From an uncultured Fibrobacteria bacterium (GTDB lineage: Bacteria > Fibrobacterota > Fibrobacteria > UBA11236): 64,000 bases of DNA. This document shows, one piece after another, positions 19,264 to 24,091 of the stretch. The notes beneath the pieces were generated by a model. That model saw nothing but the letters and a program-made list of their open reading frames with translations. It did no database searches and was not told the origin of the DNA. The stretch covers positions 3,328,001 through 3,392,000 of the forward strand of contig OY970309.1 in NCBI GenBank assembly GCA_963716395.1, read 5' to 3'. How positions within the stretch are numbered: position 1 is the stretch's first letter; the number at the start of each line of letters is the position of its first letter. A program made the position numbers and the translations under genes.

Positions 19264-20631
19264 ATGCTATTTCGTGAATTGAATTTAATTCCCACCATTT
19301 TATCCGCGCTACAGGCCAAAGGATATGAGACCCCCACGCCTATCCAGGCCGCGGCCATTCCTCCCGTGCTGGAGGGCAAAGATCTGCTGGGTTGCGCGCA
19401 AACCGGCACGGGCAAAACCGCCGCCTTCGCCCTGCCTATCTTGCAAACCTTGGCCGGAAAACCTCCGGCCGACCGCGGGCGTAAATATATCCGCGCCCTC
19501 ATTTTGGCGCCGACGCGCGAGTTGGCGTTGCAAATCGGAGAAAGCTTTCAGGCCTATGGCCGCGATTTGAACCTGCGTCTGGCCGCGGTTTTCGGCGGCG
19601 TCAGCGACTTCGGGCAAAAGCAAAAGCTGCGGCAAGGCGTCGACATTCTCGTGGCCACGCCGGGCCGGCTCATGGACCTACACGCACAACGCGTGTTGTC
19701 GCTGGATCGCGTCGAGATCTTCGTTCTGGACGAAGCCGATCGCATGCTCGATATGGGCTTTGTCCACGATGTGCGCCGTATCGCGGCTTTGCTGCCGGCC
19801 AAGCGCCAAACCCTGTTGTTTTCGGCCACCATGCCGCCGGAGATTCGCTCGCTTTCCCAAAGCCTTTTGCATGCTCCCGTCATGGTCGAGGTGGCGCGCG
19901 TTTCGTCGACCGCGGATAACGTGGATCAAGCCGTCTACCACGTCCCGCGCAATCTCAAGCCCGATTTGCTGCGGCATCTGCTGGCTGATGCGAATGTTCA
20001 GCGGGCCCTGGTTTTCACCCGCACCAAACACGGCGCCGACCGCCTGCACAAAACGCTGGACCGCCATCGCATCGCCGCGGAAGCGTTGCATGGCAATAAA
20101 ACCCAAGGCGCCCGCCAACGGGCCCTGGAAAATTTCAAGCGCGGAAAAACGCGCGTGCTGGTTGCCACCGACATTGCCGCGCGCGGTATTGACGTCACCG
20201 ACATTTCGCATGTCTTCAATTACGATTTGCCCGAAGTGCCGGAAACCTATGTGCATCGCGTGGGCCGTACGGCCCGCGCCGGAGCGACCGGAATGGCCGT
20301 GGCTTTCTGCGACGTGGATGAGCGCGGCTATTTGCACGGCATCGAACGTCTGACACGCAAACGTCTGGATGTGCTGCCGTTGCCGGTGTTCGCTGGCAAC
20401 GCGTCGGGGGCGGCTTCGGAGGTACAGGCCGATCCGCAGGAACGTCCGCTTCACCCGTCTTCCGCATCGCACCGATCGCCCCGATACGAAACCCGAAGCC
20501 AGGAACCGGCCCGGACTCCCCAATCGGAACACCGCGGGCCCGAGCACTCGGCAACCGGCCCGCGCTTTGGCCGTCGCCATGGTTCGAATTTCGAAGGTCG
20601 CGGCAAGGCCCGCAACTTTCGCGGCCGATAG
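19264..20631 (+). CDS. rhlE: DEAD-box ATP-dependent RNA helicase (RhlE-like)
   Basis: Q motif GYETPTPIQ, AQTGTGKT, PTRELA, TPGRL, DEAD, SAT, ARGID, HRVGRTAR; basic disordered tail; RBS AAGGAG. Confidence 0.93.
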   Translation: MLFRELNLIPTILSALQAKGYETPTPIQAAAIPPVLEGKDLLGCAQTGTGKTAAFALPILQTLAGKPPADRGRKYIRALILAPTRELALQIGESFQAYGRDLNLRLAAVFGGVSDFGQKQKLRQGVDILVATPGRLMDLHAQRVLSLDRVEIFVLDEADRMLDMGFVHDVRRIAALLPAKRQTLLFSATMPPEIRSLSQSLLHAPVMVEVARVSSTADNVDQAVYHVPRNLKPDLLRHLLADANVQRALVFTRTKHGADRLHKTLDRHRIAAEALHGNKTQGARQRALENFKRGKTRVLVATDIAARGIDVTDISHVFNYDLPEVPETYVHRVGRTARAGATGMAVAFCDVDERGYLHGIERLTRKRLDVLPLPVFAGNASGAASEVQADPQERPLHPSSASHRSPRYETRSQEPARTPQSEHRGPEHSATGPRFGRRHGSNFEGRGKARNFRGR

Positions 20632-20743
20632 CGGTTCACTTCCCCACCGATGTCTGGCCGTTTGCGTTGTGCAGAAAATGGCCGATTTATTAACTTTCAT
20701 GTGCTTTGATCCATTTGTGGGTCAGAGCGCTTTGATTTCTGGC

Positions 20744-21013
20744 CTCAGTTGGTAGAGCAAGTCCGCCGCAGGCGGATTAATCGCTCGACGAACTGAGACT
20801 TCAGAGGTTTGATTTGGTGCCTGATAGCTCAGTTGGTAGAGCAAGTCCGCCGCAGGCGGATTAATCGCTCGACGAACTGAGACTTCAGAGGTTTGATTTG
20901 GTGCCTGATAGCTCAGTTGGTAGAGCAAGTCCGCCGCAGGCGGATTAATCGCTCGACGAACTGAGACTTCAGAGGTTTGATTTGGTGCCTGATAGCTCAG
21001 TTGGTAGAGCAAG
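20744..21013 (+). repeat. 84-bp tandem repeat (~3.2 units): tRNA-Asn nt 1-28 + palindrome TCCGCCGCAGGCGGA + tRNA nt 35-45 + 30-bp spacer
   Basis: TGCCTGATAG recurs at 20818, 20902 and 20986; palindromes at 20762, 20846 and 20930; the first unit lacks tRNA nt 1-10. Confidence 0.97.
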
Positions 21014-21359
21014 CGACTGTTAATCGCTCGGTCCCTGGTTCGAGTCCAGGTCAGGCAGCCAACCTTGTATCCCAAGTGTTTCAAGCCTACGCACTTCGTT
21101 CTCCTGCTTCCGGCCTATTCTATTTCGGGCATACCAATGATTTGGATCGACGATTACGGGAACATAACGACCCCGCACGCGACTCACGGCATTTCACCCG
21201 AAGACATTTGCCATGGGTGCTCGTTTACTCCGAATCCTTTTTGACCAGGTCCGAAGCCATGAAAAGGGAAAAATTTTTCAAATCGGGCCAAGGAAGGGAA
21301 TGGTTAAAGCAAAAATTGGCCGAAGAAGAGTGTGGTAGAGCAAGTCCGCCGCAGGCGGA
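20930..21359 (+). mobile_element. Putative 430-bp tRNA-carrying GIY-YIG element (innermost copy), bounded by the GCA palindrome at both ends
   Basis: Palindrome-[tRNA 35-45]-spacer-intact tRNA-Asn-GIY-YIG-[tRNA 17-28]-palindrome. Both junctions read TGGTAGAGCAAG-TCCGCCGCAGGCGGA-TTAATCGCTCG. Mobility is inferred, not shown. Confidence 0.55.
20986..21061 (+). tRNA. tRNA-Asn (anticodon GTT), intact
   Basis: 76 nt: TGCCTGA/TCAGGCA acceptor stem, GCTC/GAGC D-stem, AGCGA-CTGTTAA-TCGCT anticodon arm, CCTGG-TTCGAGT-CCAGG T-arm, G-CCA end. Confidence 0.97.
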
Positions 21360-21363
21360 TTAA
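21076..21363 (+). CDS. Small GIY-YIG nuclease (copy 1, 95 aa)
   Basis: GTG start; AYAL...FYFG (GIY-YIG variant), T.DL.RRL.EHN, PW.LVYSE, A.KREKFFKSGQGREWL. Confidence 0.9.
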   Translation: MFQAYALRSPASGLFYFGHTNDLDRRLREHNDPARDSRHFTRRHLPWVLVYSESFLTRSEAMKREKFFKSGQGREWLKQKLAEEECGRASPPQAD

Positions 21364-21401
21364 TCGCTCGGTCCCTGGTTCGAGTCCAGGTCAGGCAGCC
21401 A
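21333..21401 (+). pseudogene. 3' fragment of tRNA-Asn (nt 17-28, palindrome, nt 35-76)
   Basis: Retains the T-arm and CCA; lacks the 5' acceptor strand; anticodon destroyed by the palindrome at 21345-21359. Confidence 0.9.
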
Positions 21402-21415
21402 ACCTTGTATCCCAA

Positions 21416-21703
21416 GTGTTTCAAGCCTACGCACTTCGTTCTCCTGCTTCCGGCCTATTCTATTTCGGGCATACCAATGATTTGGATCGACGATTACGGG
21501 AACATAACGACCCCGCACGCGACTCACGGCATTTCACCCGAAGACATTTGCCATGGGTGCTCGTTTACTCCGAATCCTTTTTGACCAGGTCCGAAGCCAT
21601 GAAAAGGGAAAAATTTTTCAAATCGGGCCAAGGAAGGGAATGGTTAAAGCAAAAATTGGCCGAAGAAGAGTGTGGTAGAGCAAGTCCGCCGCAGGCGGAT
21701 TAA
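21416..21703 (+). CDS. Small GIY-YIG nuclease (copy 2, identical to copy 1)
   Basis: Exact 340-bp shifted duplicate of 21076-21363. Confidence 0.9.
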   Translation: MFQAYALRSPASGLFYFGHTNDLDRRLREHNDPARDSRHFTRRHLPWVLVYSESFLTRSEAMKREKFFKSGQGREWLKQKLAEEECGRASPPQAD

Positions 21704-21741
21704 TCGCTCGGTCCCTGGTTCGAGTCCAGGTCAGGCAGCCA
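21673..21741 (+). pseudogene. Second 3' fragment of tRNA-Asn
   Basis: Identical to 21333-21401; palindrome at 21685-21699. Confidence 0.9.
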
Positions 21742-21755
21742 ACCTTGTATCCCAA

Positions 21756-22004
21756 GTGTTTCAAGCCTACGCACTTCGTTCTCCTGCTTCCGGCCTATTC
21801 TATTTCGGGCATACCGATGATTTGGATCGACGATTACGGGAACATAACGACCCCGCACGCGACTCACGGCATTTCACCCGAAGACATTTGAGCCCAATCG
21901 CCATCCTCGTGCCGAACCCGAGCAATGAAGGTTTTTGCCGACGCGCTACACTCGGATATGGACATGCGAAAGAATGCATGGCGAAATTCCTGGAACCAGA
22001 GTGA
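21756..22004 (+). pseudogene. Truncated GIY-YIG nuclease (copy 3)
   Basis: Matches copies 1/2 (one N>D change) up to FTRRHL at 21890, then reads into unrelated sequence and loses the C-terminal half with the conserved Glu. Confidence 0.85.
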
Positions 22005-22162
22005 GTCAGGTTCGCAAGCGGGTGCATTTTCGTCGTGGGAGTTGCAGCCATAACCCGCCGATTTGATCAAAAGCGACCGGCCGGTTTTTCCACGCCCAAC
22101 CAAGACACTACTGCGCAAATGCAGTATTCTTTGTTGGGACAACTGGCTTTGCCTAGGATCAC

Positions 22163-24091
22163 ATGCGTTGGAAAATTATTTTCGTCTTCGGACTGCCTTT
22201 GTGGGCTGTGGCCGCTTCCCCACCTGCGGATTCCGTGGGTTCCGCCGAGCAGACGCAGGCGCGGGTGTATTTGAAGCAGCGTTTGCTGCAACTCAATCTG
22301 GAATTTCCATTCTCGACGTGGGCCCGGCGCCTCGATTCCCTGAACAATGAAATCGACGGCTTTCTAGCCCACCATCAACCCATGCGCTATGATCCGGCGT
22401 TGCGACCGGAGTTGCTGCGTTTTTCCGCAGCCTTGGATTCGGCGCGCGCCGAACGGCCCCAGGTGCAATCCCTCATCCATGAGATGTACGTGCAAATCAT
22501 GGTGGGGCGTATCCAAGAAGCTTTCCGCCGCGACGGCAAGACGCTGAGTCCGCAGGGGCGCGACGCACTGTATCGCGCCCTCAAGCCCTATGAGGCCGGC
22601 AGCCTGCGCCCTAAAACCGACTTTCTGGCCCAACTAGTTTCTTTGGATAGGAAATTTTCCCATGCCTACTCAACCTGGCTGTTCGAATGGGCCGGGGCCT
22701 GGTTTCCTCATTTATTGGCGACGCAATCGCAAGACACCGGTTTCGCCGCCGAAGAAGCCCAGCGGCAGGATCTGGCGCTGCAACTCGAATATTGGACGCG
22801 GCAAATCGACTCGGGCGGGGCAGCCCAGGCTGTGACCCATTTTCGGCAATTGCAGACCGAATTGCTGCAGGAAAGGCCGAGGGCGCTGGCCGACTTGCGC
22901 AGCATGGAAGCCAATCTCGATCCCGACATGTTGCTGAGCGACTTGTTGGAAGAGGCTCAGAAAGAAGGGCTTTCCTTCACCGTAGAGGCCGAAGAGCGGG
23001 TCGAAGCGGCGCTGGATGCGCGCGGACAATCCGTGCTGCTTCCCATGCGGGACAAAATCGACACCTGGATGCGTTTTGACCAAGCCCTGCAAAACGCCTT
23101 GACGCGCGCGCAGGCCACGGTGGATCGGAATCAACAGGCGATCACGGCGCATGCTGCCGAAGAACAGCAAGAACAGCAAGCGCAGCAGGAATTGGCCGCC
23201 CGCACCGAACAGGAGCAATGGGAACAACAGCGCCAGGCGGAAGAGCAGCGTGAACGCGAAGAACAGCAGCAACAACAAGAACAAGCGCGGCTGGCGGCTT
23301 TGGCCGCCGAGCAGGACTCGGCCGATGCGGCGGAGCGGGAACAGGCCGAACAAACCTTGGCGGAATGGAAAAGTTTGCAAGCCGGCGGCGCGCTGGCAGG
23401 GTTGGACGGGGCTACCGACAGCGCACTTGCCGTACACGCCGGAACTTTGAAAACCAGCACCGTGGCCAGCGGACGGACGCGGTTGCAGGTCGCGTCCCGA
23501 AAGTTTTCCGATACGCTGGCCTTTGTGGAAAAATTCACCGTGGACGAAAGCCACATCGATTTGTCCAAACTCAGCCTCGATCAAAAAGCTTCGCAATCGG
23601 CCTATGTCTACACCTCGCCGACCGGGCGCACCAACCCGCGCGATCTGGATCAATTCGTGCAGAACGTGGCGCTGGGATCTTTTAACACCGAATACCGTTT
23701 CCTTTCCTACCTGGTTCCGGAACGTCTGCGGTGCGGCCGCGATCTGGCTTGGGAATTCGATCGATCTTCCCAACCCGTTGTTCACGACCGGGTTTTCAGC
23801 TATGTCGATTTGGTGGACGACGCGCATCACAAACACGCTAAAGGCACCGGGACGCCGGCCGAGGGAGCGGAGATGAATCTGCCCGCGAATTTAATCGTTA
23901 TTTTCGACGCCCAAGGCGGCATTATGCGCTATCAATCCTTCGGCCATCCGGACCAAATATTCATCCGCCCGCAAGACCTGGTCGACGGGCGGCTGCATTA
24001 CAAGTTTTTAAACTACAGCGTCGATCGCGAAAACATCTATCTCAACGGGATCGATCCCGAGATAAAGGTCAGCGCGCCCGCCTCGGGCTGA
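22163..24091 (+). CDS. Exported hypothetical protein with Q/E-rich coiled-coil linker
   Basis: 642-aa ORF, signal peptide (MRWKIIFVFGLPLWAVAA), EEQQEQQAQQ...EQQQQQEQ region; family not recognised. Confidence 0.75.
   Translation: MRWKIIFVFGLPLWAVAASPPADSVGSAEQTQARVYLKQRLLQLNLEFPFSTWARRLDSLNNEIDGFLAHHQPMRYDPALRPELLRFSAALDSARAERPQVQSLIHEMYVQIMVGRIQEAFRRDGKTLSPQGRDALYRALKPYEAGSLRPKTDFLAQLVSLDRKFSHAYSTWLFEWAGAWFPHLLATQSQDTGFAAEEAQRQDLALQLEYWTRQIDSGGAAQAVTHFRQLQTELLQERPRALADLRSMEANLDPDMLLSDLLEEAQKEGLSFTVEAEERVEAALDARGQSVLLPMRDKIDTWMRFDQALQNALTRAQATVDRNQQAITAHAAEEQQEQQAQQELAARTEQEQWEQQRQAEEQREREEQQQQQEQARLAALAAEQDSADAAEREQAEQTLAEWKSLQAGGALAGLDGATDSALAVHAGTLKTSTVASGRTRLQVASRKFSDTLAFVEKFTVDESHIDLSKLSLDQKASQSAYVYTSPTGRTNPRDLDQFVQNVALGSFNTEYRFLSYLVPERLRCGRDLAWEFDRSSQPVVHDRVFSYVDLVDDAHHKHAKGTGTPAEGAEMNLPANLIVIFDAQGGIMRYQSFGHPDQIFIRPQDLVDGRLHYKFLNYSVDRENIYLNGIDPEIKVSAPASG

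Follow-up and report, generated by a model that had tools for sequence, protein, structure and literature searches.

What is the role of a long imperfect hairpin placed in front of the only tRNA-Asn gene of a bacterium? In the 64,000-nt stretch of DNA from an uncultured Fibrobacteria bacterium analyzed here (the window, to which coordinates refer unless another genome or locus is named), the tRNA-Asn(GTT) gene is preceded by tandem 84-bp units carrying an imperfect inverted repeat of 68 nt and followed by tandem copies of a gene encoding a mini GIY-YIG nuclease. An initial annotation had proposed that this inverted repeat could be a folded single-stranded DNA (ssDNA) substrate, conceptually similar to the attC sites of integrons, or an RNA device. 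The comparison of this locus with its relatives points, with moderate confidence, to a structural by-product, contained in the pseudo-tRNA scar units left by a nuclease cassette resident at tRNA-Asn.

Organization of the tRNA-Asn locus

Two tandem arrays, delimited by Tandem Repeats Finder, flank the tRNA-Asn gene, which ARAGORN recovered as the single Asn gene among the 46 tRNAs of the genome. The upstream array (20744-21013) comprises 3.2 copies of an 84-bp unit with 100% identity, and the downstream array (21020-21890) comprises 2.6 copies of a 340-bp unit with 99% identity; the upstream units are pseudo-tRNAs devoid of open reading frames (ORFs), while the downstream ones combine the nuclease gene with a tRNA fragment. 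The 84-bp unit presents, in this order, tRNA nt 1-28, a 15-nt hairpin (TCCGCC-GCA-GGCGGA, hereafter HP) standing in place of tRNA nt 29-34, tRNA nt 35-45, a 13-nt filler (ACGAACTGAGACT) occupying the position of the T arm, and a 17-nt copy of the native tRNA leader, and it terminates at a TCAG common to the 3′ acceptor strand of the tRNA and to the native leader. The 340-bp unit is formed by the 95-codon GIY-YIG gene followed by tRNA nt 17-28, HP, and nt 35-76. All the partial tRNA-Asn copies have HP where a part of the anticodon arm should be, and the window holds five identical 38-nt blocks carrying it. Contigs from four metagenome runs were short, covering the tRNA and parts of the nuclease gene, and none of them bridged an array.

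The nuclease is a single-domain GIY-YIG protein of 95 residues, with PF01541 matched at residues 4-70 (E 6.1e-15) and no other domain. Its relatives 1ywl (E 3e-8) and 1zg2, from UPF0213, are the nearest solved structures in the PDB, and no NCBIfam family matched the protein. The alignment with 20 homologues revealed that Y5, Y16, G18, R26, H30, and E65 are invariant. The last six codons (SPPQAD) and the stop codon are read from HP and the following TTAA, and an SPPQAD-type tail is common to five of the 19 homologues in the alignment. The genome has no other small GIY-YIG gene, its remaining GIY-YIG match lying in a 711-codon frame. The sole substitution among the nuclease copies of the window, HTNDL to HTDDL, is carried by the third one.

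The nuclease cassette at other tRNA genes

The same architecture was found in a family of 142 loci picked by likeness to the window protein, comprising the window, L009 (from genome G028, of the same order), 60 loci from genome contigs, and 80 from metagenomes. An intact tRNA on the same strand lay at most 150 nt from the nuclease gene in 96 of the 142 loci, placed only upstream in 66, only downstream in 29, and on both sides in one; in another 29 loci the nuclease gene was at a contig edge, and 17 had no tRNA within 150 nt. These tRNAs belonged to 13 types upstream and eight types downstream of the nuclease gene, and the 27 tRNA-Asn cases reflect relatedness rather than a measured preference, because the loci were chosen by their likeness to the window protein. 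Perfect TCC..GGA hairpins, present in 96 of the 142 loci, occurred at 1.28 per kb near the nuclease gene versus 0.12 per kb elsewhere, and in most loci the hairpin exactly substitutes the anticodon arm. ORF-less 5′ units with a hairpin for the anticodon arm were flagged in 28 loci, forming arrays of up to 10 units, and all the 5′ units of related loci lack a working T arm.

L009 was the closest architectural relative: at its tRNA-Asn, tandem 5′ units with a TCCGCCGAAGGCGCA hairpin come first, then the intact tRNA, a nuclease sharing 47% identity with that of the window, and a 3′ fragment bearing a hairpin. This 3′ pseudo-tRNA fragment also contains two extra hairpin-forming inserts on the minus strand (~1470-1434 and 1403-1357), one splitting HP and the other located in the T arm and bearing another TCCGCC-N3-GGCGGA hairpin. 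A search for HP followed by TTAA in 208 genomes of the class retrieved the window genome, G028, and G023, the last one being discarded as a chance match in a long coding stretch with no tRNA.

Moreover, empty sites were observed among the relatives. Eight of the 13 fetched same-family helicase loci, all eight from the same genus, keep a DEAD-box helicase adjoining tRNA-Asn and have no cassette, array, or filler; the unpublished genome G194 was counted only in the tally of helicase matches.

Two further features of the family were recorded. In L078, ten tandem 74-bp ORF-less units (1657-2395), formed by a tRNA-Val 5′ part and a hairpin, precede the intact tRNA and differ from each other by single bases, including changes in the hairpin stem. 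ARAGORN called hairpin-substituted pseudo-tRNAs as tRNA genes in L072 (2383-2456, with a 4-base "anticodon" taaa) and L125 (1742-1821, "Ala tgc"), and such pseudo-tRNAs may be counted as real tRNAs in genome annotations.

Composition and stability of the long hairpin

The inverted repeat described in the initial annotation, with its antisense copy of the tRNA 5′ end, was confirmed. The right arm (GCTCGACGAACTGAGACTTCAG) is identical to the reverse complement of tRNA nt 4-25 in 17 of 22 positions, and the gapped match between the arms reached a Smith-Waterman score of 24, which was equalled by none of 1000 shuffles. The RNA fold of the 68 nt had −34.4 kcal/mol on the plus strand (z −6.38), with none of 200 shuffles as stable, and −31.8 kcal/mol on the minus strand (z −5.26), and the DNA fold had −18.2 kcal/mol (z −5.58, none of 200 shuffles), compared with −6.4 kcal/mol for the apex alone; the GCA hairpin, as had been predicted, stood at the apex in all three. 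The whole region 20700-21080 also gave folds far more stable than those of its shuffles, with z −7.44 for RNA and z −8.73 for DNA.

Four tiers build up the long stem, HP being the apex. In the GAGC/GCTC tier, the 3′ strand of the D stem (nt 22-25) pairs with tRNA nt 41-44, from the old anticodon stem; in the CTGA/TCAG tier, acceptor nt 4-7 pair with a TCAG that both starts the 3′ acceptor strand and forms part of the native leader; and the CTCAGTT/AACTGAG tier, in which the D arm pairs with the filler, is the sole new pairing. When the filler was shuffled 1000 times, the mean fold had −24.5 kcal/mol versus the −34.4 kcal/mol observed, a value reached by four shuffles. Most of the stem stability is thus due to the apex hairpin and to tRNA and leader letters, since ~24.5 of the 34.4 kcal/mol survive the shuffling of the filler.

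The left edge of the array (20744) had been regarded as coinciding with the base of the strongest stem. The alignment revealed that homology to the leader part of the unit (TCAGAG..TTTGATTT..GG) extends further left, and that unit 1 is a degenerate copy that lost ~9 bases of the tRNA 5′ end; this edge is not set by the stem.

Other origins were considered for the filler. A native leader sequence was rejected, as the filler is absent from all eight same-genus leaders and its genomic occurrences are confined to the three units. For a T arm, diverged or inverted, the best match by hand was 5 of 11 positions in the direct orientation, or CGAAC in the inverted one, versus 9-10 of 11-12 for an inverted D arm. 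The inverted D arm is the better origin on these letters, and the filler may still derive from the T arm.

Conservation of the outer stem

It had been anticipated that the spacers at homologous loci would track the complement of their cognate tRNA. Complementarity of the tRNA 5′ part to the remainder of the unit was scored against 1000 shuffles in one unit per locus, in 23 of the 28 flagged loci, after dropping L080 (two intact tRNA-Met genes), L123 (same sequence as L122), and L177, L066, and L046 (no clear hairpin unit); the reference for L125 was the pseudo-tRNA called by ARAGORN. The window (0 of 1000 shuffles), L136 (p 0.005), and L110 (p 0.043) were positive, and in the other 20 loci no significant complementarity was detected (p > 0.14), including the 10-unit array of L078 (p = 1.0) and L009 (p = 0.50). 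A smaller run with 10 loci agreed with this result. Because complementarity is missing in 20 of the 23 loci, the outer stem does not count as a trait of the cassette family, and the anticipated tracking mostly did not hold.

The three positive loci are all associated with tRNA-Asn, and the excess of outer stems inside this lineage is unexplained. In L136, part of the match corresponds to the remaining 3′ acceptor strand of the pseudo-tRNA itself, and in L110 the matching stretch is also readable as a diverged T arm. Folding gave the same three-tier hairpin for the units of both L136 (DNA z −2.08) and L110 (DNA z −3.11).

A possible role of the hairpin in a presumed tRNA leader transcript

Another explanation places the action of the hairpin in RNA: the units, being located in the 5′ leader of the tRNA-Asn precursor, would self-fold, and the spare 5′ halves would thereby be kept from mis-pairing with the tRNA or from occupying processing enzymes. 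The sole promoter-like region precedes the entire array, with no copy in the 84-bp units, and it was noticed by its resemblance to a CTTGAAA..TAGACTAAAT-type motif conserved 60-70 nt upstream of tRNA-Asn in same-genus genomes; a consensus scan found no σ70-like site in 20300-22300. If transcription starts from this region, the units would be co-transcribed with the tRNA as a section of its leader, and such a role would also be favored by the high stability of the RNA hairpin and by the defective T arm common to the 5′ units of the family. However, the real filler brought no gain in the predicted probability of the cloverleaf (0.175 versus 0.169 for the median shuffled filler, with 18 of the 40 shuffles equal or better), the feature is not conserved in 20 of the 23 loci, and the last filler pairs with the D arm of the intact tRNA. 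The sequestering device suggested in the initial annotation thus found no backing in these folds, and an RNA role is very improbable. The alternative fold between the last spacer and the intact D arm, also suggested there, does appear in the predicted ensemble, with a mean pairing probability of 0.23 versus ~0.72 for the intact D stem, and it would represent a cost to the tRNA and does not speak for a function.

The presumed transcription unit also contains, between the candidate promoter and unit 1, a terminator-like element formed by a 13-bp hairpin and TTTGATTT. The 3′ arm of this native leader hairpin (20701-20730), TCAGAGCGC, is the source of the TCAGAG found in every unit.

Dispersal of the apex hairpin

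The apex hairpin is not restricted to the tRNA-Asn locus. The pattern TCCGCC-N3-GGCGGA was found at 64 sites in the window genome versus three for a backwards-pattern control. Among 40 relatives, G028, the other cassette-bearing genome, had 27 sites versus none for the control, and G031, with a weak GIY-YIG match, had 13 versus one, while the remaining 38 presented 0-11 sites with control counts of 0-13, most of them being at background; the counts of the window genome and G028 represent two related observations rather than a statistical test.

Ten of these sites belong to larger palindromes. Five correspond to a 55-bp palindromic, MITE-like element with HP at its tip (GGTACCTCTAATAATCG-G-HP-GAATGCGATTATTAGAGGTACC), two to another repeat family, and three to the tRNA units. 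The arm of the 55-bp element has 22 + 22 genomic copies, 14 paired elements of 55-202 bp carry 0-3 hairpins each, and the longer composite elements (112-202 bp) hold up to three hairpins.

Resemblance to Ssn nucleases

The Ssn family is the nearest described system. According to Chenal et al. 2025 (PMC11893778), SsnA from Neisseria meningitidis is a 94-residue single-domain GIY-YIG protein that binds its hairpin repeat in the single-stranded form alone and cleaves it a few nucleotides to the 5′ side, and ssn genes are mostly flanked by NTS/SRM hairpin repeats, which are dispersed in the genome. Similarly, the window protein is a single GIY-YIG domain of ~95 residues, GC-rich hairpins whose loop has 3 nt flank its gene, and the same hairpin is dispersed, with the highest counts in the two gene-carrying relatives. 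The catalytic residues Y6, Y17, and E64 of SsnA would correspond, by position only, to Y5, Y16, and E65 of the window protein. On the other hand, the window hairpins have no GTCWY box on their 5′ side, and they are embedded in partial tRNA copies, with the gene inside a tRNA transcription unit, whereas PMC11893778 makes no mention of tRNA. The window system resembles the Ssn family on the points checkable here, with the exception of the SRM pattern discussed below, and ssDNA cleavage is predicted by analogy; on the same analogy, the apex hairpin is the probable DNA site of the nuclease.

Origin of the units and alternative explanations

In the by-product reading, HP would be the cognate hairpin of the nuclease, recognized in ssDNA in an Ssn-like manner, and the nuclease would nick HP-bearing single strands at a locus that would often be single-stranded because it is heavily transcribed. 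The repair of these nicks or breaks, by unequal recombination or microhomology-mediated template switching, would generate tandem units, for which the TCAG shared by the tRNA and the leader is a candidate junction, and identical units would arise on both sides of a tRNA copy that must stay intact. Continued exchange would keep the units identical, while selection would keep one intact tRNA-Asn. The long stem would result from HP, GAGC/GCTC, CTGA/TCAG, and CTCAGTT/AACTGAG falling in register by happenstance: the first three would constitute a pre-existing quasi-palindrome, and the inverted D-arm-like filler would come from fold-back, or quasi-palindrome, template switching and not from selection for a device. 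Template-switch mutations at quasi-palindromes extend the identity of the arms, notably in highly transcribed DNA, as stated in the excerpted texts of PMC7202029 and PMC3820800. Such an event would account for the resemblance of the filler to an inverted D arm, for the mismatches between the two, and for the sporadic occurrence of such fillers among tRNA-Asn loci.

Several observations weigh against this reading. The SRM pattern of the Ssn repeats, HGTCWYN(0-2)YYVSBRHN(0-5)WNVSBRGN(0-2)RNCYNB, matched none of the hairpins in 62 loci (258,961 nt), its sole match, in L050, being unrelated. The match of the filler to the D arm is by itself improbable by chance, since 107 of 20000 shuffles, and 36 of ~20000 random 13-mers of the window, equalled it, and the five mismatches among the 18 outer positions are at odds with a fold-back copy made recently and faithfully. 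Among the 11 tRNA-Asn loci, three were positive at p < 0.05 versus ~0.5 expected by chance, and in L136 the D loop of the unit has a G-to-T change relative to the intact tRNA that restores pairing with the spacer, which could mean selection for pairing. Finally, at 10 of its 64 genomic sites HP caps a long imperfect palindrome whose asymmetric internal loop is like that of the unit and whose flanks are more complementary than those at 99% of random places, so that the long HP-capped stem may be a meaningful form in this genome.

In another explanation, the long HP-capped hairpin is itself a selected ssDNA form, in the manner of REP or attC sequences, with the nuclease or the host replication and recombination machinery acting on the whole 68-nt fold and driving the amplification or mobility of the units. 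The palindrome-capping sites far exceed the 1% expected, the 55-bp elements share the same kind of 3′-side internal loop, the pairing of L136 appears to have been restored, three tRNA-Asn loci have the outer stem, with L110 and L136 folding alike, and the DNA fold of the complete hairpin is much more stable than that of its apex. Nevertheless, the outer stem is absent from 20 of the 23 loci, including arrays of three and 10 units, and the 3′ fragments of the window bear HP with no long stem, the first of them folding no better than its shuffles (RNA z −1.44; DNA z −1.37). Moreover, SsnA needs and cuts a single-stranded 5′ flank, according to the available text of PMC11893778, and a long stem would bury this flank; the 55-bp elements share one arm sequence, which indicates that a mobile unit was copied and that the stem was not invented several times. 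A selected form of the whole hairpin is, on balance, rather unlikely. The ssDNA substrate proposed in the initial annotation is plausible only for the apex, which is common to cassettes at many tRNAs, ~10 times denser near the nuclease gene in the 142 loci, dispersed, and Ssn-like.

At the other extreme, the stem could be a pure coincidence, one lucky 7-mer having fallen in register with complementarity intrinsic to the tRNA, without any templated event or function. The letters of two of the three outer tiers do come from the tRNA or the leader, the chance of meeting such a filler at least once among the 23 loci is ~5-11% when the filler alone has p 0.002-0.005, and the matches of L136 and L110 are partly readable as acceptor-strand or T-arm remnants. 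This explanation is nonetheless disfavored by the number of positive tRNA-Asn loci, by the register of the match with the other tiers, and by the rarity of filler shuffles reaching the observed fold energy, and it seems quite improbable.

Relation to other known systems

SegB is a free-standing GIY-YIG homing endonuclease found in the tRNA cluster of T-even phages, as stated in the excerpted text of PMC2330249, and its nuclease activity is required for the tandem amplification, dependent on homologous recombination, of a segment containing tRNA and segB, in the part of PMC13096335 available. The window GIY-YIG gene also adjoins a tRNA, its arrays fit a SegB-type tandem amplification, and it is present or absent among relatives, as in the eight same-genus loci that keep the helicase and tRNA-Asn with no cassette. 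The differences are that SegB is a phage protein, whose C-terminally truncated form behaves unlike the full protein, and cuts double-stranded DNA at a T-loop motif (both from the available part of PMC13096335), whereas the window protein is one 95-residue domain, lacking the DNA-binding extension of SegB-like homing endonucleases, and its locus is chromosomal, in an uncultured bacterium. SegB also has no conserved hairpin and leaves no hairpin-substituted pseudo-tRNAs.

Concerning the T loop, the tRNA-derived part of the 5′ unit stops in or just after it (GTTCGA) in L035, L037, L054, L078, and L110. The SegB cleavage motif RAWTSGAAC, as given in the available part of PMC13096335, is antisense to the T loop GTTCGA.

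With respect to the attC sites, the likeness lies in an imperfect inverted repeat able to fold in ssDNA. In contrast, the window has no gene cassettes of that kind, the arms are derived from the tRNA, and the outer stem is not conserved at homologous loci. No integrase, transposase, or recombinase family was found among the 22 ORFs of at least 150 residues in 6885-34583, ~13 kb either way, and the resemblance suggested in the initial annotation stands as an analogy only.

REP/BIME palindromes are associated with RAYT transposases, which are IS200/IS605-like. They share with the window system dispersed, short, GC-rich hairpins nested in larger palindromes, together with a single nuclease gene flanked by hairpins; they differ in that RAYT is an HUH enzyme, from a family other than GIY-YIG, and in that the mobility of the window system is only putative. 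To our knowledge, the embedding in tRNA has no REP counterpart. A related proposal is that the mini GIY-YIG nuclease and TCCGCC-N3-GGCGGA constitute a REP/RAYT-like system whose working DNA form would be the long HP-capped imperfect hairpin. The scar units and the 55-bp elements would then be two products of one process, which would insert or extend hairpins at stem-loop tips in ssDNA (tRNA arms, palindromes) and subsequently amplify them, and the outer stem would be a feature of the substrate and not a scar. We regard this proposal as doubtful.

Significance of the locus

The long hairpin alone is a local curiosity and should not be taken as a conserved ssDNA or RNA device. The surrounding locus matters more, with the gene of a 95-residue nuclease settled in the transcription unit of an essential single-copy tRNA, where its cassette leaves hairpin-substituted pseudo-tRNAs on both sides of the tRNA and accompanies the spread of the same hairpin throughout the genome. 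No description of this tRNA-embedded form of the cassette was found in the literature searched. If the hairpin is the ssDNA site of the nuclease, the range of specificities of Ssn-type enzymes, useful as ssDNA tools, would widen, the tRNA-fragment minisatellites of many uncultured bacteria would be explained, and the locus would provide an example from nature of a nuclease driving tandem amplification at a tRNA gene of the chromosome.

Coordinates and neighboring features

The features of the locus and the copies of the 55-bp element are listed in Table 1.

Table 1. Features of the tRNA-Asn locus in the window and copies of the 55-bp element elsewhere in its genome (G000)
Feature	Position	Strand	Remarks
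Candidate promoter of the tRNA-Asn transcription unit, TTGTGC..TTAACT	20667..20695	+	Weak; read by eye
Native tRNA-Asn leader hairpin, 13 bp, then TTTGATTT (terminator-like)	20701..20730	+	
Unit 1, 5′-truncated: pseudo-tRNA-Asn from nt 11, HP 20762-20776, tRNA nt 35-45, filler 20788-20800, leader copy	20744..20817	+	
Unit 2, 84 bp: tRNA nt 1-28, HP 20846-20860, nt 35-45, filler ACGAACTGAGACT 20872-20884, leader copy TCAGAGGTTTGATTTGG	20818..20901	+	
Long hairpin of unit 2	20821-20888	+	
Unit 3, identical to unit 2: HP 20930-20944, filler 20956-20968, long hairpin 20905-20972	20902..20985	+	
Intact tRNA-Asn(GTT), sole tRNA-Asn gene of the genome	20986..21061	+	ARAGORN; Rfam RF00005, 69.3 bits; sole match of a permissive Rfam search
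GIY-YIG nuclease gene copy 1, GTG start, 95 residues	21076..21363	+	Pfam PF01541
3′ pseudo-tRNA fragment 1: tRNA nt 17-28, HP 21345-21359, nt 35-76	21333..21401	+	
GIY-YIG nuclease gene copy 2, inside the 340-bp tandem unit	21416..21703	+	
3′ pseudo-tRNA fragment 2, HP 21685-21699	21673..21741	+	
GIY-YIG nuclease gene copy 3, ending after ~45 codons at the right end of the array (~21891)	21756..21891	+	Match to residues 1-52
55-bp element	G000:C1:1244544-1244598, 1804808-1804862, 2768074-2768128, 139213-139267, 1041776-1041830		Outside the window

Just downstream of the second array, a 642-codon open frame (22163-24088) matched no Pfam family and presents a long stretch rich in glutamine and glutamate.

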